Below, one piece after another: positions 1 to 52,190 of a DNA stretch of 64,000 nt; positions within the stretch are counted from its first letter, which is position 1; the number at the start of each line of letters is the position of its first letter. The translations under genes and the position numbers were made by a program. The DNA comes from an uncultured Candidatus Saccharibacteria bacterium (GTDB taxonomy: Bacteria; Patescibacteriota; Minisyncoccia; Phycocordibacterales; PALSA-1337). Under the pieces are notes generated by a model. The model was not told where the DNA came from and did no database searches. It saw only the letters and a program-made list of their open reading frames with translations. The DNA lies in assembly GCA_964367745.1 (NCBI GenBank), contig CAYIYK010000001.1, positions 28,142 through 92,141 of the forward strand, in the 5' to 3' direction.

Positions 1-188
1 TATATAATGGTAAAAAGATATATTATTCTTTGGGGAATTTTGCATTTGATCAGTATTTTTCAGAAGCAACTATGAATGGTATTGCGGTTTTAATAAATAT
101 TGACAGAAAAGACGATGAGATTTCTTTTTCATTTGAAGATGTTCCAGTGAGAGTGGATAGAGAAGGCGTTAAAGTAATAAATAAATAG
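1..188 (+). CDS. 3' fragment of a CapA/PgsA-family metallophosphoesterase-like protein (partial; the ORF enters from the left edge)
   Basis: The frame is open from nt 3 to a TAG at 186-188. The translation ...YYSLGNFAFDQYFSEATMNGIAVLINIDRKDDEISFSFEDVPVRVDREGVKVINK resembles the conserved C-terminus of CapA-family proteins (YSLGNF). Confidence 0.4.
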   Translation, partial: YNGKKIYYSLGNFAFDQYFSEATMNGIAVLINIDRKDDEISFSFEDVPVRVDREGVKVINK

Positions 189-271
189 TTATCCACAGAG
201 TTATGAAATTTTGATAAAATTTTTGTGTTTCTATCTATTGCTCAAAATTTTTTAAACTATAAAATGTAATC

Positions 272-625
272 ATGAATAAAGATGATTATGTTACAAAAGA
301 ATATCTCGATTCAAAACTAAAAGATTTTGTTACTAAAGACTATCTTGATAAGAAGTTTGAACTAATGTCTATAGAATTCGAGCGACATGCTACTGATTTA
401 GCATCTGGCATTAATGGAAAAATAAAGGGTGTTTGTGATCAATTATCTGCAATAGATGAGAAGCTTACTTGCTTGGATCAGAAGGTGACTGTTATAGATC
501 AAAAAGTGACATCTTTAAGTCTCGATGTTTTTAATATTAAGGAAAATATGAAGGAAAAGGTTGATAAAAGTGAAGTTTTAGATCTAAAAAAGAGAGTAGT
601 AAAACTTGAAATTAAACTTGCTTAA
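272..625 (+). CDS. hypothetical coiled-coil protein (117 aa)
   Basis: ORF track. The protein is rich in K, E, D and L with heptad-like periodicity. No recognisable catalytic motif. Confidence 0.4.
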   Translation: MNKDDYVTKEYLDSKLKDFVTKDYLDKKFELMSIEFERHATDLASGINGKIKGVCDQLSAIDEKLTCLDQKVTVIDQKVTSLSLDVFNIKENMKEKVDKSEVLDLKKRVVKLEIKLA

Positions 626-699
626 AAACCTATTTTTGATAGTATTTTATTGGAAACAGGAGCGGAGTTTTCTCCAAGCCTGTAGCAAGGGCTCCCTCC

Positions 700-740
700 C
701 CGGCATCCAATGTTCCTCTGGATGCCGGTTTTTGTTTTTA
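700..740 (+). terminator. rho-independent terminator hairpin
   Basis: ccggcatcc-N11-ggatgccgg followed by tttttgttttt. Confidence 0.55.
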
Positions 741-757
741 TAGGATATAATATATGA

Positions 758-1726
758 ATGCATAAAATAAGAGTTGGAGTTATACGCGGTGGTCCGAGTA
801 ACGAATATGATGTTTCTCTAAAAACTGGAGCAACAGTTTTGAACAATTTACCTAAAGAGAAATATGTAGCTCGTGATATTTTTATCGACAAAGATGGACA
901 TTGGTTTGTCCATGGTCTTCCTACAACTCCACATGAAGCTCTTACTCATATCGACGTTGCTTTTAATGCTTTACATGGGCACTTCGGTGAAGATGGAAAA
1001 ATTCAACATATATTTGAAGTTCATGGTATTCCTTTTACTGGTTCTGGATCATTTGCTTCTGCAATTGGAATGAATAAACAGATGACTAAGGAAGTTTATA
1101 AAAAAGAAAAATTAAAGACACCTCAATCACGTTTGATAGAATCTCTTGAGGAAGTTAGTAAACAAGCACATGAGATTTTTAGAGCTTTCCCTCTGCCAGT
1201 TGTTGTTAAACCTCTTGCAGGCGGATCATCAGTTGGAGTTACAATAGCAAAAGATTTTTCAAGTTTTGAAAAAGCAGTTAGAGATGCTTTTGAACACAGT
1301 AATTCTGTTATGGTTGAAGAATTTATAAAAGGGAAAGAAGCGACTTGCGGGGTGATCGACAATTATCGTGAACAAGAATTCTATGCATTACCACCAATCG
1401 AAATACGACCTCACAACGGCAATTTCTTCGATTATTCTGCAAAATATGAAGGGAAGTCAGATGAAATAGTACCAGGGAATTTTACAGAATCAGAAAAAAG
1501 AGAAATAGAAAATATGGCAATACAAGCGCACAAAGCTCTTGGTTTAAGTCACTATTCACGTTCAGACTTTATCATCCATCCGAAGAGGGGAATATTTATC
1601 TTGGAGAGTAATACACTGCCAGGATTGACTGAAGAGTCACTTTTGCCAAAAGCCTTGAAAGCTGTAGGAGCTTCAGTTTCCCACTTTTTGGATCATGTAA
1701 TAGAACTTGCAATAACTAGAAAATGA
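758..1726 (+). CDS. ddl: D-alanine--D-alanine ligase (ATP-grasp)
   Basis: N-terminal RVGVIRGGPSNEYDVSLKTG, GGSSVGVTIA and EEFIKGKEATCGVID motifs are typical of Ddl. Length 322 aa. TGA stop. Confidence 0.85.
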   Translation: MHKIRVGVIRGGPSNEYDVSLKTGATVLNNLPKEKYVARDIFIDKDGHWFVHGLPTTPHEALTHIDVAFNALHGHFGEDGKIQHIFEVHGIPFTGSGSFASAIGMNKQMTKEVYKKEKLKTPQSRLIESLEEVSKQAHEIFRAFPLPVVVKPLAGGSSVGVTIAKDFSSFEKAVRDAFEHSNSVMVEEFIKGKEATCGVIDNYREQEFYALPPIEIRPHNGNFFDYSAKYEGKSDEIVPGNFTESEKREIENMAIQAHKALGLSHYSRSDFIIHPKRGIFILESNTLPGLTEESLLPKALKAVGASVSHFLDHVIELAITRK

Positions 1727-1757
1727 AGTAATATATAAATTCGATGGTGTGTTTTAT

Positions 1758-1780
1758 GGGCTCGTAGCTGTCTTGGTAGG
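1758..1780 (+). repeat. degenerate partial copy of the tRNA-Ala 5' end (gggctcgtagct...ttggtag)
   Basis: It has 12 identical nt plus a further 7 identical nt compared with the tRNA 5' acceptor/D-arm at 1813-1834. It lies 55 bp upstream of the intact tRNA. Confidence 0.5.
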
Positions 1781-1812
1781 TATACAACGAAAGCAAGTTA
1801 AAAATAAAATAA

Positions 1813-1885
1813 GGGCTCGTAGCTCAGTTGGTAGAGCAATCGCTTTGCAAGCGAAAGGTCAGGAGTTCGAATCTCCTCGAGTCCA
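1813..1885 (+). tRNA. tRNA-Ala (anticodon TGC)
   Basis: Hand-folded cloverleaf: acceptor GGGCTCG/CGAGTCC with the G3:U70 Ala identity pair, D-arm GCTC-AGTTGGT-AGAGC, anticodon loop TTTGCAA, T-arm AGGAG-TTCGAAT-CTCCT, discriminator A. CCA is not encoded. Confidence 0.9.
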
Positions 1886-1887
1886 CA

Positions 1888-2286
1888 ATGAAATTAGATC
1901 CTCGACTTCATCACTATTGTCAAAATATAACTAGAGGCTATTTGAACGATGTTGTAGAGATGTATTCCTTACTAGGTTTAAAGGTGGTTTATATTCCTGA
2001 AAACAAAGACTGGATTATGGTTGCTCAAGAACCACTACAATTTGCTATTCAAATTACTCAAGTTGAGGACACTCTAATTTCTGATGTAGAGCTTAAAAAA
2101 CGAGCACATATTGCTTTTCTTTCCGATAATCCGCAAGCAGTTATAGATAAAGTCGAAGCGTGGGCAAAAGGTAAAAGTATAAAGTTCAGACAAGGCGGGT
2201 GGTCAGATATTGAAAGATACTTTGATTTACCAGATATATTTACTAATTTTGTAGTTGAAGTAATGCATACGTCTATTGAAAAATAA
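1888..2286 (+). CDS. VOC-family (glyoxalase/bleomycin-resistance fold) protein
   Basis: Starts 3 nt after the tRNA. HIAFLSDNPQAVIDKVEAWAKGKSIKF...YFDLPDIFTNFVVEVMH matches the VOC pattern HxAFxVxD...G...YFxDPDGxxxE. Confidence 0.5.
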   Translation: MKLDPRLHHYCQNITRGYLNDVVEMYSLLGLKVVYIPENKDWIMVAQEPLQFAIQITQVEDTLISDVELKKRAHIAFLSDNPQAVIDKVEAWAKGKSIKFRQGGWSDIERYFDLPDIFTNFVVEVMHTSIEK

Positions 2287-2292
2287 AATTAA

Positions 2293-3255
2293 ATGATACA
2301 TTTCAAAAATCAGCCAAAGTTATCTGGATTTGAAGTAGATAAGAAATTTGATGAGCGTCGTGTGGTACTTGCTTCACAGATTGAGACTCTTCTTGCCGAA
2401 GATGAGTTATTCAAAGACAAAGACGTGAGTGTTGAGTTCTCTCATAAAGGGGTTTCTTCTCTGGTCAGCTTTGTTGAAGCTGATAGTAAAAAATATGTCC
2501 TCAAAATCCCACTAAGTTCTAATTCTGAAGAAGGTGAAGCTCAATTTTTGGAAGCATGGGAAGCGGTTGGTGTATCTGTACCTCATATATATAAAGAAGG
2601 GAGAGTGGGAGAGCATCCATATATTCTTATGGATTTTGTTGATGCTCCAATCCTAATGGATGAAATTAAACAAAGTACAGCAAAGAAAGATATTTATATT
2701 GAATTAGGAAGAACTCTCGCTATAATGCACACTCCAAAAGCAGAAGGTTATGGACGCATTATAAAAGGGAAACCACAATATAGAGAATTCAAAGAGTGGC
2801 TTGCAAGCGAAGATATTATAAATAGAGTCAAAGCTACTCAAGAAAATAATCTTTTAACAGATGAACATGGTTCACTTACACGTGTCTTTGATGTTTTGAA
2901 CGCATATTCTGAAAAACATCCAATAAGTACTTACTGTCATTTTGATTATGATGCTACAAACATTTTGGCAACTGAACCAATTACTATTATTGACCCAAAC
3001 CCAACATTGAATCTTGGAATCATTGATATTGCTCGAAGTATTGTGATTTCAATTTCAAGAAGCGGTTCGGTCGATTCTGGAAAACAATTGAAAGAAGGGT
3101 ATTTCTCAGGTAATGCACCATACAATGCTAATGCACTACAAGCAGCAATTATCCTAAATGCCTACATGAAATTTCCTTACTGGTATAAGAAAGAGAAAAA
3201 AGAAGCCATAGAAAATATACGACAATACCTGGCTCAAACTGCACATCTTCAATGA
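2293..3255 (+). CDS. phosphotransferase-family protein (APH/choline-kinase-like small-molecule kinase)
   Basis: Brenner-type catalytic motif HFDYDATNIL and IIDPN, plus ILMDFVDA. The length and layout are like aminoglycoside phosphotransferases. Confidence 0.6.
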   Translation: MIHFKNQPKLSGFEVDKKFDERRVVLASQIETLLAEDELFKDKDVSVEFSHKGVSSLVSFVEADSKKYVLKIPLSSNSEEGEAQFLEAWEAVGVSVPHIYKEGRVGEHPYILMDFVDAPILMDEIKQSTAKKDIYIELGRTLAIMHTPKAEGYGRIIKGKPQYREFKEWLASEDIINRVKATQENNLLTDEHGSLTRVFDVLNAYSEKHPISTYCHFDYDATNILATEPITIIDPNPTLNLGIIDIARSIVISISRSGSVDSGKQLKEGYFSGNAPYNANALQAAIILNAYMKFPYWYKKEKKEAIENIRQYLAQTAHLQ

Positions 3256-3345
3256 CATGTGGTCTTTGTTTACAAAATTGCCTTTAAATACTTCATTTCC
3301 CTCACTAGATGGTTTAGAAAAATAAAACTAAAACCTACAATAAAA

Positions 3346-3377
3346 AATAGAGTAGCTTAGGCTACTCTATTTTTTTA
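3346..3377 (+). terminator. rho-independent terminator
   Basis: atagagtagc-ttag-gctactctat followed by ttttttt. Confidence 0.6.
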
Positions 3378-3467
3378 TCTAGGATTACCACTAGATTCGA
3401 AAGACGGAGGACACGAAGGTGTCCGAGTCGGGGTCGCGGGCGAGGCTAGTAAGCCGAGACCTGTGAC

Positions 3468-3487
3468 CGAATCTCCTCGAGTCCACA
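3468..3487 (+). repeat. direct copy of the tRNA-Ala 3' end (att-like junction)
   Basis: cgaatctcctcgagtccaca matches 1868-1887 at 20/20. It is preceded by a GC-rich structured stretch and followed by the hairpin ctggcgtttgccag plus a T-run. Confidence 0.7.
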
Positions 3488-3620
3488 ACGAAAGAAAAGA
3501 CTGGCGTTTGCCAGTTTTTTCTTTTGTCTGGAACTTGAACAAGATGAGAAAGGCGGAGGTATGAAAATTATTATATTTGACTTTAGAATTTTATCGGAGC
3601 ACAATAATCTCGGATACATT

Positions 3621-4340
3621 ATGAACAAAACAACTGAAAAAGTCAGATCTATCACTGGTAGAGGTACGGCACCCTTCCGTAAACTCGATAAAAATACCGC
3701 AGGCCGTAGTTCTGTGTATGAAGGTCCTCTACAGGCAGAGTTATCTGTTGTCGTGGTTGAACCAGATGAAAAAGTTCAAGCATGCCTCATGCGGTTTTTT
3801 AAAGATATTAAAATCGCTTGTCGCAGAATCGTTATTGCTCAAGACAAAGTCACGGCAATAGCTTATATCAACGAAGGTTTATATGGTGCGACGATTACAA
3901 ATGTCTTAATGTATGACGGTGCAGGTCAACAACCTGAACCTACACTCAGCCAGTCGCGCGTCTTCAGTAGATATGTCGAAAGGCATAAACCTAGGTGCAC
4001 ACGACTTCACTATATACTTGGTGATCTTGATAATTGTTTGAGAAGATATGCAGGGGACCTATGTCCAGCTAGTACAGATACTGTGCTTTTTACAACGAAT
4101 GGACATATGATATCTCCATATGTCGATGGTGTCGGTATTCCAACTTACGAAGGATGTTTGGTACTATTTAGAAGTCTCTTTATGATGCACGAGCTCAAAC
4201 AGGGGAATCTTACACAAGAGTCGACCCCACCATTAATTGGTTTTAGATTTGGAGACAAGGGACATAATTCACGTTTTCTCTTAAAGAAAAGACCTGACTC
4301 ATCAATCAAGCGTATCTTTAGAAAATACAACGTTTTGTAG
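3621..4340 (+). CDS. hypothetical protein, GC-rich ORFan (about 240 aa)
   Basis: ORF track, using the internal Met. No recognisable motif. Composition is atypical for the window. Confidence 0.35.
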   Translation: MNKTTEKVRSITGRGTAPFRKLDKNTAGRSSVYEGPLQAELSVVVVEPDEKVQACLMRFFKDIKIACRRIVIAQDKVTAIAYINEGLYGATITNVLMYDGAGQQPEPTLSQSRVFSRYVERHKPRCTRLHYILGDLDNCLRRYAGDLCPASTDTVLFTTNGHMISPYVDGVGIPTYEGCLVLFRSLFMMHELKQGNLTQESTPPLIGFRFGDKGHNSRFLLKKRPDSSIKRIFRKYNVL

Positions 4341-4375
4341 ACAATCATGTCAACTGACACATTACACTGTTAGCA

Positions 4376-4420
4376 ACCCACTCAGTAGGAACCCTTGCTG
4401 GCTGTGGGTTTTTTGTTTGT
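4376..4420 (+). terminator. terminator-like hairpin
   Basis: acccac-N24-gtgggt followed by tttttgtttg. Confidence 0.4.
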
Positions 4421-4442
4421 TCAAATAAATTTTTACATTGAC

Positions 4443-4462
4443 CGAATCTCCTCGAATCCACA
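4443..4462 (+). repeat. third copy (19/20) of the tRNA-Ala 3' end
   Basis: cgaatctcctcgaatccaca. It shares the extended left flank tgaccgaatc with copy 2. Confidence 0.65.
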
Positions 4463-4471
4463 ATAAAAAAA

Positions 4472-4496
4472 TACCCAAGCTTTCGCAAGGGTATTT
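4472..4496. terminator. bidirectional terminator hairpin
   Basis: taccc-aagctttcgcaa-gggta flanked by A-runs and T-runs. It lies between the island end and the convergent minus-strand gene. Confidence 0.45.
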
Positions 4497-4510
4497 TGAA
4501 ATTGATTTGA

Positions 4511-5185
4511 TCAAATTCTGAAATTTTTTCTTCGTATGAAGATATACGAGAACAAGACCAATCCAGTTGCGATTGTCGAAGCTGTTTCTGGTACCGCACC
4601 AGATGCAAGTGGTGTAACTGATATTTGATAATGACCACAGTTATTGATCACATCCTCGATACCAGATGCATTTCCGAAACCGAAATTGATTACCCTTGGG
4701 AGGGTATTCAGTTGTAATACATAGGAATATGAATGATCTGAACGATATTCAGGTATCCCACCTATGTTCATACCATCATATTCTCCAACAGTATTGTTCC
4801 AAACTATGTTGTATAGGCTTGTTGATTGCTCGTATGTGGTATTGTCACCAATAAAGTAATCATTCGGCACAAGAGACGTATTACCATCAAAAGCGATTCT
4901 GTGAGTTGATGATGATGTTTTGGGTACCCAACCGATTTGTGGATTGATGAATTCGTAAAATGCATCATACAGGTTGACGGTACTGTTTTTATCAAAACCA
5001 ATTCCACTGATCTTAACTCCGACTAGTCCACTGTACTTGGAAGTCGTAGTTGCTTCGATTGAATGATCGAACATTGCAATGAGGTTCTCAGACGGCCCAA
5101 TAGGGTGATAGTAATCCGTTATAACGTGCTGTGCCTTAAGGTTTAGTGACAGCATTAGCACAACGATAACCACGATATTTTTCAT
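4511..5185 (-). CDS. secreted cell-surface protein with a C-terminal sorting signal (sortase- or PEP-CTERM-like)
   Basis: N-terminal signal peptide MKNIVVIVVLMLSLNLKA. C-terminal VPETAS, then the hydrophobic segment TIATGLVLFSYIFI, then RRK. That is a motif + TM + basic-tail architecture. Confidence 0.5.
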   Translation of the reverse strand: MKNIVVIVVLMLSLNLKAQHVITDYYHPIGPSENLIAMFDHSIEATTTSKYSGLVGVKISGIGFDKNSTVNLYDAFYEFINPQIGWVPKTSSSTHRIAFDGNTSLVPNDYFIGDNTTYEQSTSLYNIVWNNTVGEYDGMNIGGIPEYRSDHSYSYVLQLNTLPRVINFGFGNASGIEDVINNCGHYQISVTPLASGAVPETASTIATGLVLFSYIFIRRKNFRI

Positions 5186-5276
5186 TGTTTATCCTCTATT
5201 TTTAGTTTCCAAATCGATAATAATACTTATAAAAAAATATATCAAGTTTAATATTGTTTTTTGGTTTATATAAATA

Positions 5277-5296
5277 AAAAACAAAACCCGCGCATT
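5277..5296 (+). repeat. 20-bp perfect direct repeat aaaaacaaaacccgcgcatt (copy 1 of 2)
   Basis: Identical to 5927-5946. The two copies bracket ORF 5419-5895. Confidence 0.7.
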
Positions 5297-5418
5297 TAGC
5301 GAGAGTTTCTGCCATCCAAACTAATCAAGAAACAAAAATTATATATATATTGACATAATCTGAAAAGTATAATATTCTTTTTTTAGAAGCAAGTTAACAA
5401 AAAAAGAAAATTTATAAA

Positions 5419-5895
5419 ATGAGCTTAACCATTACTATGAGCTTAACCATTACTAATAGTAAAAATGGCGATGGGTGTTTTTATGATGATTGTTATGAAT
5501 CTGGAGGTCTTCATCCAGTAAGTAATTCTCTCGCTAAGATACTTATCCTTGATACAAATGATAGTCTAATCCCATGTAATTACCAGCGCTGGTTTCACGC
5601 AGATGACTCTGGTGTTGGTGGCGGAAATAACTATGTTCCTACCGGTGAAGGACCGATACCTACTGATAGTATTGAGAAAGTTGATGAAAGGTGCTTTACG
5701 ACAAGCGAGGTCAGTAGTAATTTTTTGGACGACAATATTATCCATTTGATGGATCATCCACCAGAAGGTGTGCGATTTATTAAATATGACGGGTACCAAA
5801 AAGATGATCGATCAAAATATTGTACTTTTTTTGGCTTTAGAATCATCTACCGAAGGGAAGTTTCATTTCATCACCGTATACTACTTTTCAAGTAA
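5419..5895 (+). CDS. hypothetical protein; an 18-bp tandem duplication at the 5' end gives MSLTITMSLTIT
   Basis: ORF track. atgagcttaaccattact occurs twice in tandem. No recognisable domain. Confidence 0.35.
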   Translation: MSLTITMSLTITNSKNGDGCFYDDCYESGGLHPVSNSLAKILILDTNDSLIPCNYQRWFHADDSGVGGGNNYVPTGEGPIPTDSIEKVDERCFTTSEVSSNFLDDNIIHLMDHPPEGVRFIKYDGYQKDDRSKYCTFFGFRIIYRREVSFHHRILLFK

Positions 5896-5926
5896 AGTCA
5901 GTTCACGGTTCCAGAAACCAATTTTT

Positions 5927-5946
5927 AAAAACAAAACCCGCGCATT
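5927..5946 (+). repeat. 20-bp perfect direct repeat (copy 2 of 2), part of a bidirectional terminator hairpin
   Basis: aaaacccg-cgcattgtgtgct-cgggtttttt. Confidence 0.7.
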
Positions 5947-5962
5947 GTGTGCTCGGGTTTTT

Positions 5963-6496
5963 TCATTTTTTGATTTTCTTGCTACTCAATACAATAGCGT
6001 AGCAGAAACTAAGTAGTAGTTTTTTATAATGAACTACTTGATATGGAGAATACCTAATGTCGCCGTTCTCGGTATCATGCTTTACAAGATTGGTATGATC
6101 TCCTTGCTCATAGAAATGAACTATTTCGTCTAGATTAGTCCAGAGCTTGATTCGACCTTCATCCCTTTGAAAATAAAAGGCAGTGTATCGAATCGGCATA
6201 TCGCAAATTGATGGAAATTGAATCCATGGTTGCTTGCTTGAAAGCAAGTAGAGTTCTTCCTTACTCTCTTTACCAGTTACAGTGAAGTTTTTGTGACAAA
6301 GCCACTCAAAGACAACAACGATTTCTTTCTTCCTGGATCTGATATCGATTCTGAAATCCTTTATTTCACCCCTAAACATTTTGTAAGTTTTGAGGCCAGA
6401 AGAACCCTTATCTGTAGATTCGATTTGCAACTGACCACCTACATAGTCTGTAAGCTTTTCAACAAGCTTTACTCGACTCCAAAAATATCCATGCAC
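5963..6496 (-). CDS. hypothetical protein (177 aa), divergent from the lexA operon
   Basis: ORF track. No recognisable motif. Confidence 0.35.
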   Translation of the reverse strand: MHGYFWSRVKLVEKLTDYVGGQLQIESTDKGSSGLKTYKMFRGEIKDFRIDIRSRKKEIVVVFEWLCHKNFTVTGKESKEELYLLSSKQPWIQFPSICDMPIRYTAFYFQRDEGRIKLWTNLDEIVHFYEQGDHTNLVKHDTENGDIRYSPYQVVHYKKLLLSFCYAIVLSSKKIKK

Positions 6497-6560
6497 AGTA
6501 TGATCCTTTGTTAAAATTCAATTCTCGCGCCAGTATAGCACATTTATCCACAGATTTTAT

Positions 6561-6589
6561 TTGCAGGTGAACGAATGTTCACTTATACT
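6561..6589 (+). promoter_or_regulatory. sigma-70-type promoter (-35 TTGCAG, 17-nt spacer, -10 TATACT) with a LexA/Cheo-type SOS box GTGAACGAATGTTCAC filling the spacer
   Basis: The GAAC-N4-GTTC inverted repeat at 6567-6582 sits exactly between the -35 and -10 hexamers. It is 36 nt upstream of a small ORF and the lexA gene. Confidence 0.6.
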
Positions 6590-6624
6590 ATATTTATAAA
6601 AGAATAAGAATAATTATTAAAAAT

Positions 6625-6834
6625 ATGAGTAAAATAAAATTGGTACATAGTTTAAGAAGAGAGATTAAAAAGTTAAATAGTGAGATCGATTTGAAAATAA
6701 TAAAAGGTTTACCATATAAAGCAGAAGCTAGACGACATAAGTTCCTAGTATCACAGTTCTATGGATTCTATGAATCTTCAAAACAGAGCTGGCTTAAGAG
6801 GACTATGCTGACATTCGCTAGTTTTGTCCTATAA
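6625..6834 (+). CDS. small basic protein (69 aa), first gene of the SOS-box-controlled lexA operon
   Basis: ORF track. Lys/Arg-rich N-terminus. Lies 9 bp upstream of lexA. Confidence 0.4.
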   Translation: MSKIKLVHSLRREIKKLNSEIDLKIIKGLPYKAEARRHKFLVSQFYGFYESSKQSWLKRTMLTFASFVL

Positions 6835-6842
6835 TAAACTTA

Positions 6843-7406
6843 ATGCAAGATTATAAAAATAAAATCTTTTCATTCTATGAAAGGTATAAAAGAATGCCGA
6901 GCTATGCCGAAATCATGAATCTTTTGGGTTTTAAATCTAAGAATTCAGTTTATAAATTGATAAATAAACTCGTCGAAGCTGGAGTATTAGATAAAGATGA
7001 TACTGGGAAGCTTATACCAAACAGTCTATCTCAAGAAGTTAAACTTCTAGGACTTGTTGAAGCCGGTATTCCAACTGTAGCCGATGAAACTAGTCTCGAT
7101 AGTTTGAATCTTGACAATTTTCTTATTAAAAATCGTGACTCATCATATCTACTCGAGGTCAAAGGCGATTCAATGATTGAAGAAGGTATAAAGGAAGGTG
7201 ATCTTGTTATAGTGGAAAAAAGAAATGATGCAAAAGATGGTGATATCGTTATTGCCGAAGTAGACGGAGGATGGACAATGAAATTTTTCAGGAAAAAGGG
7301 GAATACCATATTCCTTGAACCAGCAAATAAAAACTATAAATCTATATATCCAGAAAATGATATGAAAATATCAGCAGTGGTTAAAGGTGTCATAAGAAAG
7401 TACTAA
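6843..7406 (+). CDS. lexA: LexA repressor (S24 autopeptidase)
   Basis: N-terminal wHTH. The Ser-Lys dyad context GDSM ... GDIVIAEVDGGWTMK ... VVKGVIRKY. Confidence 0.85.
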   Translation: MQDYKNKIFSFYERYKRMPSYAEIMNLLGFKSKNSVYKLINKLVEAGVLDKDDTGKLIPNSLSQEVKLLGLVEAGIPTVADETSLDSLNLDNFLIKNRDSSYLLEVKGDSMIEEGIKEGDLVIVEKRNDAKDGDIVIAEVDGGWTMKFFRKKGNTIFLEPANKNYKSIYPENDMKISAVVKGVIRKY

Positions 7407-7444
7407 CTATTGTAAAAATCGCAAATTAGAGTTAGAATCGTGTC

Positions 7445-7990
7445 ATGAATAATTCACATTTTCACTCAATCCCACAGGATAAAGCACCAGAAATTTTAAA
7501 TTTAATCGTAGAGATAAGACAAGGTGAGTCAAATAAATACGAATACAATAAAGACTATGGAATACTAGAACTTGATCGAGTTCTTTTTGGACCTATGTAT
7601 TATCCAGTAAACTACTGCGATGTCCCATCTACTTGGAATGAAGGCGACAATGATCCTCTAGATGCAGTTGTATTCAGCACTCACCCTATCGAGCCTGGAG
7701 CTTTGGTAAAAGGAAGAGTTATTGGTGTTATGGAAATGATTGATAACGGGGAGGAAGACTATAAGATCATAACTGTAAATCATAAAGACCCAAGATATGG
7801 TCATATAGAAAATGTAGATCAACTCGCTCCATATGAAAGAAAAGATCTTCAAACTTTCTTTGAGACATATAAGATTCCACAAACTGGCCCAGGTACAGTA
7901 AAAATTGGTAAATTCCTAGGACCAAAAGAAGCATATGAGCATATAAAGAAAGCTATGCTTGTTTACGAAAAGAAGTTTAAGAATAAATAA
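7445..7990 (+). CDS. ppa: inorganic pyrophosphatase
   Basis: Signature DNDPLDAVVF matching the family I motif DGDPLDVLV. 181 aa. Confidence 0.85.
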   Translation: MNNSHFHSIPQDKAPEILNLIVEIRQGESNKYEYNKDYGILELDRVLFGPMYYPVNYCDVPSTWNEGDNDPLDAVVFSTHPIEPGALVKGRVIGVMEMIDNGEEDYKIITVNHKDPRYGHIENVDQLAPYERKDLQTFFETYKIPQTGPGTVKIGKFLGPKEAYEHIKKAMLVYEKKFKNK

Positions 7991-8139
7991 TTTTAACGGA
8001 TATGTTAGAGGTATTACAGAAAATTTTCAGTTTTCTACTTTGGGTTCTAACTGGACTTATAATACTTCCTTGCGTCTTTATGGCTTCAGTATATTTTCCA
8101 AAATGGGAAAAGTGGGGTGAGGGTTTTTAAAAATTTAAA

Positions 8140-9525
8140 ATGACACCAACAATATTTGTAATACTTGGAATAACCGGAGACTTGGCTGGTAGAAAATTAC
8201 TGCCCTCACTTTTGAGTCTTTATGTTAAAAAAGAATTACCAAATAAATTTGCTATAGTTGGATTTTCACGAAGATCTTTTACAAGAGAAGAGTTCCGCTC
8301 TTTTATCCGTGAACATATGCATGTTAAGCCAGGTCAATACAGAGAGGAAGATGTAAAGCACTTCATCGATCATATGTATTATGAACAAGGGAATTTCGAC
8401 ACTCCTGAATCATATGCTCAACTTGCTCAAAGATTAAAGAATATCGATGACAATTTTGGTCAATGTTCAAACAAACTCTTCCATCTTTCAACCCCACCTT
8501 CTCTATATGAATCAATATTCGTCCACCTTCACAAATCTGGACTTACAGTTCCTTGTGGTAACGATGAGGGTTGGACAAGAATACTTGTTGAAAAGCCTTT
8601 CGGTAATGATATTGAGACCGCTCGAAAGCTCGACAAAAAGCTCGGAGAACTATTTAAAGAAAATCAGATTTTTAGAATTGATCACTATTTAGCAAAGGAG
8701 GCTTTGCAAAATATTCTTACTTTCCGTTTCGCGAATTCACTTTTCGAACCCTTGTGGAATAAGAACCATATAGATAAGGTTCATATAAAACTAATGGAGA
8801 AAATCGGAGTAGGTAGTAGAGGCGCTTTCTATGATGCTATTGGTGCATTGAAGGATGTAGGACAAAACCATCTTTTACAAATGCTTGCAGTTGTTGCTAT
8901 GGAACCACCTGAGAATTTTGATGCAAAAAATATAAGAAAAGAAAGAGCAAAAGTTCTTGAGAAAATTCAGATAATTCCTACAAAAAATATTTCAAGTAGA
9001 GTAGTTCGTGGACAATACGAAGGTTATAGATTTGAACCTGGAGTAAAAGAGCATACTCAGACTGAAACATATTTTAGAATTGAATCATATATTAACAATG
9101 CTCGTTGGAAGAATGTCCCTTTTTATCTAGAAAGTGGAAAAGAGATGTCAGAACAAAAAACTGAAATAAATATATATTTCAAGAATGATAAAAATGATAA
9201 GACATATGAAGATAGACAAAATGTTCTTACTTTTAGAATACAACCTGATGAACTTATAAAAATTGGTTTCTGGGTAAAGACTCCAGGATTTACTATGGAT
9301 GTTGAACCAAAGACTTTGAAGTTCAAATACAGTGATTTCCCATCACATTCTGTATTACCAGATGCTTATGAAAGAGTACTATATGACGCTATTATTGGAG
9401 ATCAAACCCTATTTACAAGCACAGAAGAAGTTCTTTTCGCTTGGAAATATATTACTTCAATAATGTCAGCTTGGAACAATGTACCTTTGACTGTATATAA
9501 AAAGGGATCACAAGATGTGATATGA
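8140..9525 (+). CDS. zwf: glucose-6-phosphate 1-dehydrogenase
   Basis: GITGDLAGRKLLP dinucleotide-binding motif, the RIDHYLAKE active-site motif and EKPFG. Confidence 0.85.
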   Translation: MTPTIFVILGITGDLAGRKLLPSLLSLYVKKELPNKFAIVGFSRRSFTREEFRSFIREHMHVKPGQYREEDVKHFIDHMYYEQGNFDTPESYAQLAQRLKNIDDNFGQCSNKLFHLSTPPSLYESIFVHLHKSGLTVPCGNDEGWTRILVEKPFGNDIETARKLDKKLGELFKENQIFRIDHYLAKEALQNILTFRFANSLFEPLWNKNHIDKVHIKLMEKIGVGSRGAFYDAIGALKDVGQNHLLQMLAVVAMEPPENFDAKNIRKERAKVLEKIQIIPTKNISSRVVRGQYEGYRFEPGVKEHTQTETYFRIESYINNARWKNVPFYLESGKEMSEQKTEINIYFKNDKNDKTYEDRQNVLTFRIQPDELIKIGFWVKTPGFTMDVEPKTLKFKYSDFPSHSVLPDAYERVLYDAIIGDQTLFTSTEEVLFAWKYITSIMSAWNNVPLTVYKKGSQDVI

Positions 9526-9549
9526 TAATTAAAAAATAATAATAAATTT

Positions 9550-9777
9550 ATGTTTCAAAATTTCCTGTTAAAACAAATGTTAAAGAAGCAGATGAAAGAT
9601 GTTCCGGCAGAACAGCAAGAGCAGATTTTTACTATGATAGAAAAGAATCCAGACTTTTTTATGAAAATCGCAAATGAAGTTCAAGAAAAAGTAAAAGGTG
9701 GAATGCCTCAGCAAGATGCGATGATGATGGTGATGAAGAGTCATCAAGATGAGTTAAAGAAGGTGATGGGGAAATAA
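9550..9777 (+). CDS. hypothetical small protein (75 aa)
   Basis: ORF track only. Confidence 0.3.
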   Translation: MFQNFLLKQMLKKQMKDVPAEQQEQIFTMIEKNPDFFMKIANEVQEKVKGGMPQQDAMMMVMKSHQDELKKVMGK

Positions 9778-12836: not shown

Positions 12837-12890
12837 GTGAAAGTGCCGCCCGATTTTCATCGAACGGCACTTGATTAGACCCTTGACGGG

Positions 12891-13613: not shown

Positions 13614-13673
13614 ACCTACACTTCGACACAGGAACCCCTTTCGCAAGATGTGGGTTTTTCTTTTTATAAAATA

Positions 13674-13700
13674 GAGGATGTGATGGAGTTTAGGATTTAG
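13674..13700 (+). repeat. R2: gaggatgtgatggagtttaggatttag
   Basis: Near-exact copy of the ychF tail. Confidence 0.75.
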
Positions 13701-13708
13701 ACATCTCG

Positions 13709-14131: not shown

Positions 14132-14146
14132 GTTTATTAAAAAAAT

Positions 14147-14173
14147 GATGCTGTCATGAAGTTTAAGATTTAG
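14147..14173 (+). repeat. R3: gatgctgtcatgaagtttaagatttag
   Basis: Degenerate copy. Ends 5 nt before the start of cassette D. Confidence 0.65.
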
Positions 14174-14178
14174 GAATT

Positions 14179-14571: not shown

Positions 14572-14580
14572 TTAGAAAAT

Positions 14581-14608: not shown

Positions 14609-14685
14609 TTCACTATTTAGAAGTTGACATGTTATATATTAACTTATATAGTTTAAAATAGTAAACTTAGACGAATGATCTTGTT

Positions 14686-15200: not shown

Positions 15201-15208
15201 GTTGGGAA

Positions 15209-41318: not shown

Positions 41319-41813
41319 ATGGAAATTAAATCTACAATAGACTGGAAAGATAAAAACTTTGACATTATATATCGAGACATAGATAACGAAAGTGAATTGG
41401 AAGGTAGAAAAGTTTCATCAGTTCATGCATGGTGTTTCTGTGGAGATAAGATGGTTATTGTTTATGCAAAGAAAAAAGATATTTGGACACCACCTGGAGG
41501 AAGGGTGGAAGAAGGAGAAAATTGTGTTGATGCTATGATACGAGAAGTAAAGGAAGAATCAAATATGAAGGTTCTGAAATGGAAGTTTATTGGTTATCAG
41601 GATATCCATGAATCTAAAGGTGTATCGACTCAAGTTAGATTTGTATGTATCGTGGAGCCATATGGTGATTTTATTAAAGATCCTGACGAGGGAGATATTA
41701 CTGAAATAAAGCTTATAGATCCAAAGGATTTTAATAAGCAATATTTCAACTGGAAAGAAATAGGTGATCATATTACAAAGCGAGCATTGGAGTTGAAAGA
41801 AAAATTTGAATAA
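41319..41813 (+). CDS. Nudix hydrolase
   Basis: Nudix box GGRVEEGENCVDAMIREVKEESN, matching GX5EX7REUXEEXGU. Confidence 0.8.
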   Translation: MEIKSTIDWKDKNFDIIYRDIDNESELEGRKVSSVHAWCFCGDKMVIVYAKKKDIWTPPGGRVEEGENCVDAMIREVKEESNMKVLKWKFIGYQDIHESKGVSTQVRFVCIVEPYGDFIKDPDEGDITEIKLIDPKDFNKQYFNWKEIGDHITKRALELKEKFE

Positions 41814-41861: not shown

Positions 41862-42404
41862 ATGAAAGATGAAAATGATATCACAATTGAAAAAGATGAA
41901 AACCTAGACGATTCTGTTGTTGTTGAAGACAATGCGACTGAAACAGTTAAGGTTCTAAAAGAAAAACTAAGGAAGGCTATTGATGAGAAACAAGAGTATC
42001 TAAATTCTTGGCAAAGAGACAAAGCTGACTTCATGAATGCAAGAAGAAGAGATCAAGAAGCTCAAAAGGACTTTGCTCGTTTTTCTAATGAAAGTCTAAT
42101 ATCTGAACTTATACCTGTTCTTGATAGTTTTAATATAGCAATGGGGAATAGAGAAGTATGGGAAAAGGCAGATAAAAACTGGAGAGTAGGTGTTGAATAT
42201 ATTGCAAATCAACTTAAGAAGGTTTTAGAAGAATTTGGTCTAAAAGAAATAGATCCTCTAGGTAAGACTTTTGACCCTATGCGAGATGAAGCTATTGAGG
42301 ATGGTAAGGCCAGTGATATCGTCACGACAGTCATCCAGAAGGGCTACGAGCTCCATGGTAAGGTTTTGAAGGCTCCAAAGGTGAAGATAGGGGAGAGTAA
42401 ATAA
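41862..42404 (+). CDS. grpE: nucleotide exchange factor GrpE
   Basis: Coiled-coil N-terminus, then FDPMRDEAI...GYELHGKVLKAPKVKIGE. Confidence 0.85.
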   Translation: MKDENDITIEKDENLDDSVVVEDNATETVKVLKEKLRKAIDEKQEYLNSWQRDKADFMNARRRDQEAQKDFARFSNESLISELIPVLDSFNIAMGNREVWEKADKNWRVGVEYIANQLKKVLEEFGLKEIDPLGKTFDPMRDEAIEDGKASDIVTTVIQKGYELHGKVLKAPKVKIGESK

Positions 42405-47121: not shown

Positions 47122-47409
47122 TCACATGGATTGATACCAAATGATCCCAATAAGAAATATGAGCATACCAATCATGCCAACCAACATGTCAGCTCCAGAT
47201 GATGTTGCGTTGTGTCGGCGGCTTAAAAACAGTCTATATCCACAATGTGTTGCAATAAGCAATCCTATTGAACCAATTGTGAAAGACACTGCTTTGTAGG
47301 GTTGAACTTCGGAGGGAATCGTGGCAACAGCCATGAATACGATAATTCCCAATATCCCCATTAACAGTGCTTTAAACATATCACCATTCGTCGTGAGTTT
47401 TTGTTTCAT
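47122..47409 (-). CDS. hypothetical membrane protein (three TM)
   Basis: ORF track. Hydrophobic throughout. Confidence 0.35.
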   Translation of the reverse strand: MKQKLTTNGDMFKALLMGILGIIVFMAVATIPSEVQPYKAVSFTIGSIGLLIATHCGYRLFLSRRHNATSSGADMLVGMIGMLIFLIGIIWYQSM

Positions 47410-50921: not shown

Positions 50922-51944
50922 ATGACAAATACAAATATCATTAAGAATGAGGATGGTAAACTTGTAATATATACAAGTGCAAGTGGAGCGGTGGAGTTAA
51001 GGGCAGATACGGATAGTGAAACTATCTGGGCTACGCAAGCCCAGATTGCGGAATTGTTTGAAACTACCGTACAAAATATAATTTTACATTTAAAAAATAT
51101 ATATAATGAAAAAGAGCTAGAGAAAAAAGCAACTTGTAAGGAATTCTTACAAGTTCAAATTGAAGGAAGTCGCTCTGTTAAGCGCTCAATTGAATTTTAC
51201 AATTTAGATGCAATAATTGCAGTGGGCTATAGAGTCAACTCTAAAAAAGCTACACAATTCCGTATCTGGGCTACAACTACTCTCCGCGAATACCTAATCA
51301 AAGGTATCGTTGTTAATAATGAAAGAGTGTCAAAGCTTCCAGACAAAATATTAAAAGATCTTGAAGAAAAGATTTCTCTAATTCAAAGAACGGTAAGAGA
51401 AAGACAATTAGATCAAGGAGAAACTAATAGTCTATTGTCAGTTATCCATGACTATGCGAACTCTTGGAAATTTCTTAAGGAATACGATGAAGGAGAATTG
51501 AAGCTTAAGAAAAGTAAAGAAATTGAAAAGAGAAAGTTTGATTATGAATTTATTCGAGGATCTATTGATGTTTTAAAAGAAATGTTAATAGATAAAAGGG
51601 AAGCAACAGATTTGTTTGGTTCAGAAAGAGATGGAAGCTTCCAAGGTATATTGAAAACTATATATCAAACATTTGATAGTAAAGAACTGTACTCTAGTCT
51701 TGATGAAAAGGCATCACATTTACTTTATTTTATTATAAAGGACCATCCATTTTCTGACGGGAATAAGCGTATTGGATCATTCGTTTTTATTTATTTCTTA
51801 AGATTAAATAAAATTGATATTAGATCAAATGGTGAAAAGAAAATAAATGACAATACTCTCGTTGCCATCGCTCTACTTATAGCTGAAAGTGATCCGAAGG
51901 ATAAAGATTTAATGGTTGCTTTGGTTACTAACCTGTTGTCATAA
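50922..51944 (+). CDS. RhuM-family protein with a C-terminal Doc/Fic-like domain
   Basis: The N-terminal AELFETTVQNI...FYNLDAIIAVGYRVNSKKATQFRIWAT is RhuM-like. The C-terminal HPFSDGNKRIGSF matches the Doc motif HxFx(D/N)GNKR. Confidence 0.6.
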   Translation: MTNTNIIKNEDGKLVIYTSASGAVELRADTDSETIWATQAQIAELFETTVQNIILHLKNIYNEKELEKKATCKEFLQVQIEGSRSVKRSIEFYNLDAIIAVGYRVNSKKATQFRIWATTTLREYLIKGIVVNNERVSKLPDKILKDLEEKISLIQRTVRERQLDQGETNSLLSVIHDYANSWKFLKEYDEGELKLKKSKEIEKRKFDYEFIRGSIDVLKEMLIDKREATDLFGSERDGSFQGILKTIYQTFDSKELYSSLDEKASHLLYFIIKDHPFSDGNKRIGSFVFIYFLRLNKIDIRSNGEKKINDNTLVAIALLIAESDPKDKDLMVALVTNLLS

Positions 51945-52019: not shown

Positions 52020-52190
52020 TTAGTAGCGGCGATTAAAGTATGTCGGCGCACAAGTGAGACAATAATAGTCTGTCTCTTTGCTCATATCATGTCCACGGAT
52101 TTTCAAATATGATGTCGAGATCAGGTTTTGACACTCTTTACACAATTTTTTCAATGTTTTTGGTTTAGAGTGAGTTATATTTTTTGGCAT
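52020..52190 (-). CDS. small zinc-ribbon protein (56 aa)
   Basis: Hand translation gives MPKNITHSKPKTLKKLCKECQNLISTSYLKIRGHDMSKETDYYCLTCAPTYFNRRY, with CxxC...CxxC. It is bracketed by the 21-bp repeats. Confidence 0.3.
   Translation of the reverse strand: MPKNITHSKPKTLKKLCKECQNLISTSYLKIRGHDMSKETDYYCLTCAPTYFNRRY

Follow-up and report, generated by a model that had tools for sequence, protein, structure and literature searches.

The question raised by positions 5277–5946 of the DNA analysed here, a 64-kb stretch from an uncultured Patescibacteria/CPR bacterium of the Paceibacteria type that we call the window, is how a single gene came to stand between two perfect copies of a sequence that makes up half of a terminator hairpin. 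The 20-mer AAAAACAAAACCCGCGCATT is present exactly twice, on the plus strand at 5277–5296 (copy 1) and at 5927–5946 (copy 2); there is no further match with up to three mismatches elsewhere in the 64 kb, and none in dinucleotide shuffles (0/100), so that the perfect 20-bp bracket noted in the preliminary description of this DNA is confirmed. An enumeration over the window ranks the pair as its fourth longest exact direct repeat. At spacings of 100–1500 bp, two exact direct repeats of at least 20 nt were observed versus 0.00 in 100 shuffles, and six of at least 15 nt versus an expected 0.30 ± 0.48, which is the enrichment of flanking repeats that the same description had proposed to look for. 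The arrangement did not arise through misjoining at the repeat during assembly, because two independent Logan contigs, L072 (window 4033–5741) and L001 (5743–8269), match the window at 100% identity across both junctions.

The right edge of the repeat falls within a hairpin loop and its left edge at the end of an A-tract, where homology to all other strains breaks as well. The two copies are identical at 20/20 positions, compared with 78–95% identity of the homologous flanks between strains, and this points to a recent event. A metagenome scan with the 20-mer gave nine matches, among which only L075, and perhaps L078, are true relatives, the others being chance matches in unrelated DNA; the scan of viral contigs found none.

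The two repeat copies lie in two different hairpins

Copy 2 contributes the 5′ arm of a complete bidirectional terminator hairpin, AAAACCCGCGCATTGTGTGCTCGGGTTTT, at 5933–5961, as had been described, and RNA folds bear this out, with −15.3 kcal/mol for the plus and −15.6 kcal/mol for the minus strand. The hairpin arm sequence is TAGCGAGAGTTTC. A-runs and T-runs lie on either side; the plus strand has a T-run and the minus strand TTTTGTTTTT, giving the G+C-rich stem-loop followed by a U-tract, 3′ of a gene, that defines an intrinsic (Rho-independent) terminator. It is common to two convergent genes: it lies 37 nt past the end of 5419..5895(+), while the stop codon of 5963..6496(−) falls within reach of its T-tract and overlaps it. 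The element is a dyad-symmetric, imperfect 12-5-12 palindrome whose 29 nt recur with at most two substitutions in L001, L002, L006, L007, L008, L011, L083, L084 and L085, while in L009 the variant is more divergent and its loop is shortened by a 2-nt deletion. The DNA to the left of this conserved hairpin differs between all arrangements compared.

Copy 1 had been described as lacking a 3′ arm. This part of the description does not hold, since on the minus strand copy 1 pairs with a different complementary arm, GAAACUCUCGC, partly via G-U pairs, and is then followed by UUUUGUUUUU. The result is a hybrid hairpin at 5280..5313(−), recovered both by a terminator scan (match at 5303..5287, minus strand) and by RNA folding, in which the retained arm pairs with one contributed by the insert at its left end. 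It folds at −13.6 kcal/mol (z −2.1) on the minus strand versus a weak −5.7 kcal/mol on the plus strand; a stem-loop with a U-tract 3′ of a gene is present on the minus strand only, and on that strand alone the hairpin looks like a terminator. Rfam searches at the hairpins, and at a GC-rich element beside the tRNA remnants described below, gave no match.

The site is empty in related strains

Two related metagenome contigs, L084 and L085, carry the genes for a 259-aa and a 224-aa protein, one intact hairpin and the gene for a 177-aa protein in the same order as the window, without the bracketed gene. Positions 3–1252 of L084 (reverse complement) align to window 4017–5296 and positions 1233–1338 to window 5927–6033, and the two alignments overlap by exactly the 20-mer. 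On the evidence of these alignments, the 650-bp segment, that is a 630-bp cassette plus one repeat copy, is an indel bounded exactly by the repeat, with its break in the hairpin loop. The comparison of relatives suggested by the preliminary description thus yields the same flanks with one repeat copy and no insert, in contigs whose left cassette shares only 78% identity with that of the window and which are therefore not near-isogenic with it. The empty-site sequence contains AAATAAAAAACAAAACCCGCGCATTGTGTGCTCGGG. As the same site is unoccupied in related strains, a real gene gain or loss has taken place.

Other relatives reach the same hairpin from different genes: the 259-aa gene in L075; 224-aa, 231-aa and 140-aa genes in L083, where two other genes replace the cassette; 335-aa and 239-aa genes in L008; and a 236-aa gene in L011. 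The cassette is seen only in the window's own population (L072 and L001). With the cassette so confined and the other strains arranged differently, a single gain is the parsimonious account, even though the empty site is equally compatible with a precise deletion between the repeats. No second copy of the 20-mer was found in the other ~10 related arrays, so that an insertion at the hairpin flanked by direct repeats has been observed once. Most hairpin-adjacent cassettes in relatives meet the hairpin at the foot of its A-tract and show no duplication, and these joins fit homologous replacement driven by the flanks, not a dedicated system for site-specific integration.

The insertion lies at the distal edge of a tRNA-Ala-linked island

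The preliminary description was incomplete in one respect: the main context of the bracket is the distal boundary of a hypervariable cassette island linked to a tRNA-Ala gene. The proximal anchor is tRNA-Ala(TGC) at 1813..1886(+), identified by ARAGORN and by Rfam (tRNA, 71 bits), and the order Ddl, tRNA-Ala, variable region, 69-aa gene and LexA-like gene is kept in related Paceibacteria genomes. When window positions 1–10000 were compared with related loci by blastn, only 1–1893 and the region from ~6513 onward aligned, which delimits an island of 4.6 kb (1887..6510) built of one- and two-gene cassettes. Among relatives the island measures 1.6–3.8 kb, and by tblastn its cassette content differs in every related strain. 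The insertion locus occupies the far edge, between tRNA-Ala and the LexA-like operon, and the 5933–5961 hairpin is the constant distal boundary of the island.

Some cassettes in the island are flanked by 21–25-nt copies of the tRNA 3′ end, a classical signature of site-specific integration. One such att-like remnant lies at 3464..3488(+), within which 3468–3488 is a 21-nt exact repeat of 1868–1888; 1868–1888 and 3464–3488 bracket a 1.6-kb cassette in which a small ORF precedes an APH-type kinase gene, and 3468–3563 matches the native flank 3′ of the tRNA in L011 and L083 at 96–97%. A second remnant at 4439..4463(+), identical at 24/25 nt to 3464–3488, closes the cassette of the 259-aa gene. 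Repeats of the tRNA-Ala 3′ end occur in L011 and L083 as well. The region thus combines adjacency to a tRNA gene with internal direct repeats of the tRNA 3′ end, as expected of a tRNA-linked island, but no integrase gene or fragment was found among its ORFs of at least ~110 aa.

The left neighbour of the insertion is the 224-aa gene (4511..5185, minus strand), whose product has a hydrophobic, signal-like N-terminal segment and no match in Pfam, PHROG or PADLOC; homologues at the same position are 95% (L083) and 86% (L084, L085) identical. The right neighbour, the uncharacterised 177-aa gene (5963..6496, minus strand), exists as hyper-divergent alleles with 49–54% amino acid identity among strains, against 92–100% nucleotide identity for the LexA-side flank of the same contigs. 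Searches of Pfam, PHROG and PADLOC with the product of the bracketed gene and with all neighbouring and alternative cassette proteins suggested no function and returned only APH, NUDIX, GrpE, bPH_2, a sigma factor and a hydrolase.

The cassette carries one atypical gene

The inserted cassette (5297..5926, plus strand) consists of a promoter-like site, one gene and a short 3′ spacer. The candidate sigma-70-like promoter, TTGACA-17-TATTCT at 5350..5378(+), comes from a consensus scan (10/12 positions) and is a consensus match only. The gene at 5419..5895(+) encodes 158 aa. Its first six codons had been reported as tandemly duplicated, and the 18-nt duplication ATGAGCTTAACCATTACT ×2 at 5419..5454(+), which spans the start codon and encodes MSLTIT twice, is real, being present also in the independent contig L072. 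All homologues of the protein align from query residue 7 or later, and several start with M(S/G)L(T/S)(I/V)T; judged from these alignments, the duplication is lineage-specific and the native start is probably at 5437, giving a protein of 152 aa.

The gene had been taken for an ORFan, a label that can be dropped: an exhaustive phmmer search of 1.84 billion representatives found 16 remote homologues at E ≤ 1e-3, which share the motifs PCNYQ, YVP and FIKY.G and form with it a rare family of uncharacterised proteins. Protein searches by exact sequence or by words gave no match, and no exact or close relative was present in the protein collections searched. Pfam, PHROG and PADLOC assigned no family, the structural model (pLDDT 92) had no convincing match among solved structures, and the scan of viral contigs did not find the protein. 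Codon usage lies more than 2 SD below that of core genes, and the cargo is a real but atypical gene. The 630-bp unit is single-copy in the window and absent from all related loci compared and from viral contigs. The halves of a 7-nt inverted repeat, GTTTCTG / CAGAAAC, are found 8 nt inwards from the two cassette ends; chosen post hoc, it has P ~0.003 when the offsets must be equal and 0.05 when any offset is allowed. No subterminal inverted repeats were found in six other bracketed units.

Proposed mechanism

Given the 20-nt repeat and its two hairpins, together with the unoccupied site in relatives, the setting in the island and the tRNA-end repeats, we propose as the most likely mechanism that the cassette was inserted at the hairpin by recombination and that the 20-mer is the att-like crossover sequence, now duplicated; we give this reading a probability of about 0.5. 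The conserved bidirectional terminator at the far edge of the island was probably shared formerly by tRNA-Ala and the 177-aa gene. The 158-aa gene would have come as a self-contained 630-bp module with its own promoter-like site, and this module would have recombined into the loop of this hairpin. The crossover may have occurred within, or at the end of, a sequence shared by donor and target, namely the loop-proximal half of the hairpin and the A/T tract; such a shared sequence would leave the insert flanked by a perfect 20-nt direct repeat, like an att core after Campbell-type integration. On the minus strand, the 177-aa gene would keep a complete terminator made of its own 5′ arm and a copy of the 3′ arm and U-tail, and the second copy of the 3′ arm and tail would pair with a new 5′ arm from the insert. 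The same logic applies to elements that integrate into tRNA genes and carry a copy of the tRNA 3′ end, a pattern found three times in this island.

The preliminary description had offered two possibilities, that terminator hairpins are insertion targets or that genes move as units carrying part of a terminator. The core of this idea is supported here, since the gene behaves, together with one repeat copy, as a unit inserted at a terminator hairpin. The two possibilities cannot be told apart with the present data, and in the favoured model both are true.

Neither the cassette nor the island nor ten mid-sized ORFs of the window yielded an integrase, a transposase or any other recombinase, and no Phage_integrase or other recombinase domain was found in the island ORFs of L083, L011, L008, L012, L013, L016, L020 and L021, in scans that covered ORFs of ~110 aa or more and could have missed short fragments. 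Because no recombinase was found, we infer the enzyme; possible candidates are a tyrosine-type recombinase that recognises the dyad-symmetric 12-5-12 hairpin in trans and the short-homology recombination of the host. Under a site-specific model the circular or excision junction would read CCAATTTTT-20mer-TAGCGAGAG and contain ACCAATTTTTAAAAACAAAACCCGCGCATTTAGCGAGAGTTTC; no circular form, donor locus or attP-like junction of the cassette was found. We further infer that the direction was gain in this lineage rather than precise loss in others, and that the donor was circular or otherwise bore the repeat.

Alternative explanations

Break repair or template switching during replication, without any att site, is an unlikely alternative. 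Here the hairpin would stall replication, or it would be cleaved as a cruciform, one strand being cut in the loop and the opposite strand at the foot of the stem. Foreign DNA would then be copied or ligated in, and fill-in, or re-entry behind the point of departure, would duplicate one arm (20 nt). This accounts for a duplication whose ends coincide with structural features of the extended hairpin, one with its loop and one with the end of the A/T tract, and variable re-entry or stagger suits the variable repeat lengths at other brackets better than an enzyme with fixed cuts. The lack of a recombinase gene and the uniqueness of the event among ~10 related arrays also agree with it. What it leaves unexplained is why the DNA joined to copy 1 pairs with the retained arm (z −2.1), a pairing that is even stronger at 61661, where 0/200 shuffles fold as well.

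Less likely still is a pure exchange of minimal mobile elements, in which the whole segment with both repeats was imported by homologous recombination in the conserved flanks and the repeat is older and unrelated. The locus does agree with the definition of such elements, whole-gene cassettes that vary between conserved genes (PMC3082526); L083 and others carry different cassettes in the same slot without duplication, and alleles of the 177-aa gene have been swapped between otherwise near-identical flanks. Exchange of this kind would produce the polymorphism, but it leaves unexplained how a perfect 20-nt duplication arose with edges that exactly match the indel, and no other strain with two copies was found.

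Transposition of a non-autonomous element with a 20-bp target-site duplication is very improbable, the evidence weakly refuting it. A direct repeat that bounds the indel exactly would be expected of it, and the post hoc GTTTCTG / CAGAAAC pair near the cassette ends could be read in its favour. The actual ends, however, have no terminal inverted repeats, the other bracketed units have no subterminal ones, and there is no transposase. Target-site duplications usually measure 2–15 bp, and one of 20 bp would be far outside this range. The cassette, single-copy in the window and missing from related loci and viral contigs, has none of the features of a transposon, IS or MITE (terminal inverted repeats, multiple copies, a short fixed duplication, a transposase). 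Finally, coincidence, convergent terminator sequences or an assembly artefact can be regarded as refuted at this locus: the G-run and TTTTGTTTT common to terminators in this genome could partly explain 15-nt matches such as 61012/61661 and 45298/61006, but the 20-mer including CCCGCGCATT never appears in shuffles, the indel boundaries in relatives coincide with it, and independent contigs cross both junctions without a mismatch.

Other bracketed genes and significance

The preliminary description saw the same architecture at 51970/52221 and 61012/61661. This recurrence stands statistically (six repeats versus 0.3) and in anatomy, but an empty site is documented only at 5277/5927. At the other brackets, too, the two copies have a 3′ arm and U-tail in common, differ in their 5′ arms, and both fold; at 61012/61661 the energies are −15.4 and −12.1 kcal/mol, with 0/200 shuffles reaching either. 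Flanking repeats at the other bracketed genes measure 15, 21, ~42 and 21–25 nt, and further brackets lie at 41268/41812 and 46772/47455. Two other origins were rejected: tandem gene duplication finds no paralogues among the window ORFs, and duplication of a whole hairpin, with the non-shared arms as diverged copies of each other, has no significant support at the three brackets compared (P = 0.96, 0.10 and 0.74). In 835 kb of related loci, 51 local repeats were counted versus 3 expected; because most of these are coding repeats or, in L058, belong to a REP-like palindrome family between core genes, the survey gives no clean support for a clade-wide mechanism.

A broader and speculative reading, which we consider improbable, is that CPR/Paceibacteria possess a recombinase-less cassette system, in which single-gene modules carrying a copy of half a terminator or of a promoter recombine into the regulatory hairpins of resident genes and rebuild the resident terminators. 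Terminators and the tRNA 3′ end would then serve as attachment sites for a host recombinase acting in trans, a functional analogue of integron attC sites or pdif modules. If true, this would account for the ~20-fold excess of 15–42-nt direct repeats that bracket single genes in the window.

CPR/Patescibacteria have tiny genomes with few recognisable mobile elements, have so far been genetically intractable, and acquire strain-specific genes in ways that are poorly understood. The locus offers a gain or loss event resolved to the base pair, with occupied and empty alleles, in which an ordinary terminator hairpin appears to be the target and, judging by its predicted fold, would stay functional after the insertion. 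If one mechanism underlies the other brackets of the window, it would be a general route of gene acquisition that needs little machinery, and the duplicated half-terminator would be a simple signature of recent acquisitions in metagenome-assembled genomes. A one-off illegitimate event would still be a clean example, of limited reach.

Comparison with known systems

In the islands of Prochlorococcus, which carry this signature of tRNA-end repeats, each new integration displaces earlier ones inward, and degenerate remnants stay behind (bioRxiv 10.1101/2020.12.28.424599). As in those tycheposon islands, the island described here starts at a tRNA gene, has partial tRNA 3′ ends scattered along it and flanking its cargo, varies in content between close strains, and belongs to a streamlined genome with few classical mobile elements. 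Unlike them, the arrays examined here yielded neither an integrase nor a replication module, their units measure only 0.6–1.6 kb with one or two genes, and the duplicated site is a terminator hairpin instead of a tRNA end.

The minimal mobile elements of Neisseria (PMC3082526) resemble the locus in their two conserved flanks, strain-varying whole-gene cassettes and lack of mobility genes. In the present case Ddl with tRNA-Ala forms one conserved flank and the 69-aa gene with the LexA-like gene the opposite one, and the content between them is strain-specific. Minimal mobile elements are nevertheless defined by homologous recombination in the flanks, with no target duplication, whereas here a 20-nt duplication lies inside a hairpin.

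Phage morons, known from the idea of moron accretion, are not defined by flanking repeats. Like a moron, the cassette places one additional gene of atypical codon usage between two resident transcription units and brings a terminator and a promoter-like site with it; unlike one, it does not lie in a prophage and has neither a PHROG match nor a relative in viral contigs.

Integron cassettes are likewise small single-gene units arrayed with a hairpin-forming site at the unit boundary, recombine within that site, and carry no recombinase of their own. The attC core motifs R″ and R′ read RYYYAAC and GTTRRRY. On inspection the hairpin here has no RYYYAAC...GTTRRRY pair, no IntI or other integrase domain lies in or beside the island, and the cassettes carry promoter-like sites, face both orientations and use at least two unrelated kinds of boundary site (tRNA end and terminator). 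In these respects the island differs from an integron array, with its IntI/attI, attC cores and co-oriented, mostly promoterless cassettes.

The dif/pdif modules are recombinase-less one-gene modules with short dyad-symmetric sites, moved by the Xer recombinases of the host. They differ from the cassette, which has one full and one hybrid site in direct orientation and for which no similarity to a dif consensus was established. The cassette shares with them the single gene, the lack of a recombinase and a short dyad-symmetric boundary site, the hairpin here being an imperfect 12-5-12 palindrome similar in size to the core sites of tyrosine recombinases.

Results

The 20-mer AAAAACAAAACCCGCGCATT occurs exactly at 5277-5296 and 5927-5946, with no third site in the window at up to three mismatches and no match in dinucleotide-preserving shuffles (0/100), which establishes that the duplication bracketing the gene at 5419-5895, as claimed in the preliminary description, is real. 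In a separate enumeration it ranks fourth by length among the exact direct repeats of the 64 kb. The window is strongly enriched in direct repeats separated by 100-1500 bp: six exact pairs of at least 15 nt were observed versus 0.30 +/- 0.48 expected from 100 shuffles, and two of at least 20 nt versus none in 100 shuffles.

The hairpin AAAACCCGCGCATTGTGTGCTCGGGTTTT (5933-5961), of which copy 2 is the left half, folds on both strands (about -15 kcal/mol) between an A-run and a T-run; it is therefore a bidirectional terminator common to the convergent genes 5419..5895(+) and 5963..6496(-), in agreement with the earlier assignment. On the minus strand, the 20-mer comprises the loop end, the 3' arm and the U-tail (AAUGCGCGGGUUUUGUUUUU). 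The first copy had been described as lacking the 3' arm, but on the minus strand it possesses a complementary arm of its own: the 3' arm and tail pair, with the use of G-U pairs, with another 5' arm, GAAACUCUCGC (-13.6 kcal/mol, z -2.1), the plus-strand fold being weak (-5.7). The non-shared arms of the two hairpins display no significant similarity.

A presence/absence check in relatives, set beforehand, revealed an empty site in two contigs, L084 (ENA ERZ28575096) and L085 (Logan SRR8075931). Both carry a homologue of the left-neighbouring 224-aa gene (86% identity), preceded as in the window by a 259-aa gene homologue. Immediately after the 224-aa gene homologue, with no cassette gene in between, come a single intact hairpin and then the 177-aa gene's 3' end (…caagttacactcataaatgAAAAAACAAAACCCGCGCATTGTATGCTCGGGTTTTTTATTTTTTG…). 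By blastn, L084rc 3-1252 corresponds to window 4017-5296 and L084rc 1233-1338 to window 5927-6033. The two blocks overlap by 20 nt, which are the repeat; the window therefore has 650 extra bases, namely the 630-bp cassette and one repeat copy. The alignment places the boundaries of this 650-base indel exactly at the repeat, and the break falls within the loop of the hairpin, following CATT. Two contigs of the window's own population, L072 and L001, which are independent assemblies from ERR4405439, match the window at 100% identity over both junctions, MSLTIT duplication included, and thereby rule out a false join at the repeat during assembly.

Word-based and exact searches with the 158-aa cassette protein gave no match, and its gene had been called an ORFan; this term has to be abandoned, as 16 relatives (best E 1e-40, 52% identity) were retrieved when 1.84 billion representative proteins were searched exhaustively with phmmer. 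The tandem duplication noticed at the start of the ORF is genuine (18 nt, 5419-5454). Because all relatives align from residue 7 or later, several of them beginning with M(S/G)L(T/S)(I/V)T, position 5437 is probably the native start, and the six codons ahead of it arose by a recent in-frame duplication. The family conserves the motifs PCNYQ, YVP and FIKY.G and received no assignment from Pfam, PHROG or PADLOC. The AlphaFold model is confident (pLDDT 92), and no solved structure resembling it was found. Codon usage scores of this and the other island genes (0.06-0.14) lie well below those of core genes (0.31 +/- 0.10).

Contigs of other samples were found via neighbouring proteins and a metagenome scan with the 20-mer. 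Most contain the same hairpin with at most two substitutions in 29 nt, the exceptions being L009, with a more divergent variant, and L010, with a different terminator. The gene to its left differs in almost every contig: a 140-aa-type gene in L002, another gene with its own terminator in L006 and L007, 335-aa and 239-aa genes in L008, a 110-aa gene in L009, a 259-aa gene homologue in L075, an AcrVA2-like gene followed by 224-aa, 231-aa and 140-aa genes in L083, and in L011 a 236-aa gene between copies of the tRNA end, with the hairpin directly adjoining the second copy. In every case, homology to the window is lost at the first A of the 20-mer; the hairpin is the constant edge of the island. 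On its other side, the 177-aa gene (5963-6496, -) is bordered by the hairpin and the LexA-operon flank, both 92-100% identical between strains (at the nucleotide level on the LexA side), while its alleles share 49-54% amino acid identity, a pattern suggestive of either allelic replacement or diversifying selection of a strong kind. The L011 version, of 154 aa, is barely recognisable, and no family could be assigned to the 177-aa gene. At 6569-6580, 5' of the 69-aa and LexA-like operon, lies an SOS-box-like palindrome, GAACGAATGTTC (GAAC-N4-GTTC), which is conserved in relatives; the region is tandemly duplicated in contig L017 (60-nt units at 9657 and 9717).

The LexA-like protein, encoded 1 kb right of the hairpin locus, matches 61 loci in public genomes of uncultured Patescibacteria (Paceibacteria, "Taylorbacteria" and MAGs labelled "Saccharibacteria"), the closest being L011 (CAZVQB010000015.1; 99% identity). 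Gene order is conserved in these genomes: Ddl, tRNA-Ala(TGC), a variable segment, the 69-aa gene, the LexA-like gene, pyrophosphatase and G6PD. The variable segment spans 1.6-3.8 kb in relatives and 1887 to ~6510 in the window, and no sequence in it is common between genomes. The tRNA-Ala 3' end is copied at 3464-3488 and 4439-4463 (one pair exact over 21 nt, the other 24/25 nt), and the native downstream flank of the tRNA in L011 and L083 is the sequence found after 3468 in the window. The island can therefore be read as tRNA; small ORF and APH gene; tRNA-end copy; 259-aa gene; tRNA-end copy; 224-aa gene(-); 20-mer; 158-aa gene; complete hairpin; 177-aa gene(-).

The first cassette after the tRNA (1960-3255), between 21-nt tRNA-end repeats, encodes an aminoglycoside-phosphotransferase-family kinase (PF01636, E 2e-10), the only island ORF of the window with a family assignment, and a 108-aa ORF (1960..2286), a glyoxalase/VOC-like candidate by eye; it may represent antibiotic-modifying cargo in a CPR genome. 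Just 5' of the tRNA-end copies lies a conserved, GC-rich and strongly folded element of 60-95 nt (3371-3463 in the window; -48 kcal/mol, z -3.8, 0/200 shuffles), 96% identical between the window and L083, with a second variant common to L011 (5283-5330) and L083. It has no match in Rfam and could be an attachment-site arm or a small RNA tied to cassette boundaries. In the related strain L083, two tRNA-end copies enclose a cassette whose 390-aa product (9540-10712, -) is labelled PF26125 AcrVA2-like in a precomputed table; this label is uncertain because our Pfam scan (E<=0.01) gave no match.

The suggestion that the same anatomy recurs at two other loci is borne out, a 3' arm and tail being shared around a single gene at each. 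At 61012-61026 and 61661-61675, the common 15-mer GGGGTTTTGTTTTGT is a 3' arm plus tail, and both copies fold as terminators with differing 5' arms (-15.4 and -12.1 kcal/mol; 0/200 shuffles each). They enclose a 172-aa gene of atypical codon usage, between an aminoacyl-tRNA synthetase-like gene and scpA. This intergenic spot is also variable, since a related strain, L082 (SRR30451292; 1-640), has a PemK-family toxin gene inserted directly after the second of the two terminators. At 51970-51990 and 52221-52241, the repeat is 21 nt long with a single mismatch and corresponds to the 3' arm and tail of the terminator of the RhuM/Fic-domain gene 50922..51944; it encloses an opposite-strand ORF (52020..52190) for a 56-aa zinc ribbon of the CxxC…CxxC type.

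Two more brackets duplicate promoter regions. The 42-nt direct repeat AAAAATTACAAACTTTTCTTTTATCTAGATTTTATATATACT (41268-41309 and 41812-41853; 41/42 identical) is located 5' of both a NUDIX gene (41319..41813) and grpE (41862..42404), so that the NUDIX gene, of typical codon usage unlike the other bracketed genes, is bracketed by a duplicated promoter-like region. A 43-nt imperfect repeat (46772-46814 and 47455-47497; 72% identity, 15 nt exact) includes the promoter-like, minus-strand sequence TTGACT…TATACT and encloses a 95-aa hydrophobic ORF of atypical codon usage (47122..47409, -).

Other repeat families were observed. One of ~40 nt (…GATGTGATGGAGTTTAGGATTTA…; 12806-12843, 13661-13703, 14134-14176, 15199-15245 and 18861-18907) recurs ahead of a run of small genes (13203-15151) and once more at 18861, and is found in L083 at the equivalent position; it may be a common 5' leader or regulatory element. 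L058, a more distant, GC-richer relative, contains a REP-like family of 40-nt perfect palindromes, AATCATTCTCACATTCTTGAGAATGTGAGAATGATT (5469-5508, 6276-6315, 6613-6652 and 6946-6985), between consecutive small and core genes, one of which is a TruB-like candidate by eye only.

Discussion

The indel is bounded exactly by a recent perfect duplication that is half of a dyad-symmetric site, and duplicated tRNA 3' ends delimit other cassettes of the same island. This is most simply read as recombination of the insert into the hairpin, the 20-mer being the crossover sequence that became duplicated. The feature is real; we infer the mechanism of insertion from one hairpin locus. Along the minus strand, the 177-aa gene is followed by its own 5' arm, a 3' arm and tail, the insert, a new 5' arm, and again a 3' arm and tail. 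Such an order is expected if a hairpin brought in by the new DNA matched the target in its 3' arm and tail, the resident terminator being rebuilt as a result. The proposal that the gene moves as a unit with half a terminator is supported in part, by the 650-base indel ending exactly at the repeat; no recombinase that could serve as the enzyme was found in the cassette, the island, the relatives' islands or ten other ORFs of the window.

Among the arrays compared, the two-copy state is seen only in the window's arrangement, and most cassettes meet the hairpin at the base of the A-tract, without duplication. Both facts argue against a dedicated insertion system, and two rivals therefore stay live: in one, the hairpin stalled or was cleaved and the gene entered by break repair or template switching; in the other, an arrangement that already existed was imported through homology of the flanks. 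A transposon origin is unlikely, and this class is rejected for the insert: there are no inverted repeats at its termini, it occurs as a single copy, the flanking duplication measures 20 nt, and the only subterminal inverted repeat in the cassette (7 nt) was noticed post hoc and is absent from the other brackets.

An integron is likewise rejected for the island, since no IntI gene was found in or beside it and the hairpin shows no attC cores on inspection. Insertion at the hairpin would parallel tRNA-integrating elements, which rebuild the tRNA on insertion, as the terminator would be rebuilt here by the insert. The island is similar to tRNA-linked islands that grew by one integration after another and contain partial tRNAs and degenerate remnants (bioRxiv 10.1101/2020.12.28.424599), and it qualifies as a minimal mobile element in the sense of PMC3082526. 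Two features set it apart from both: its units are integrase-free and hold one or two genes, and a terminator hairpin is used as the duplicated insertion site.
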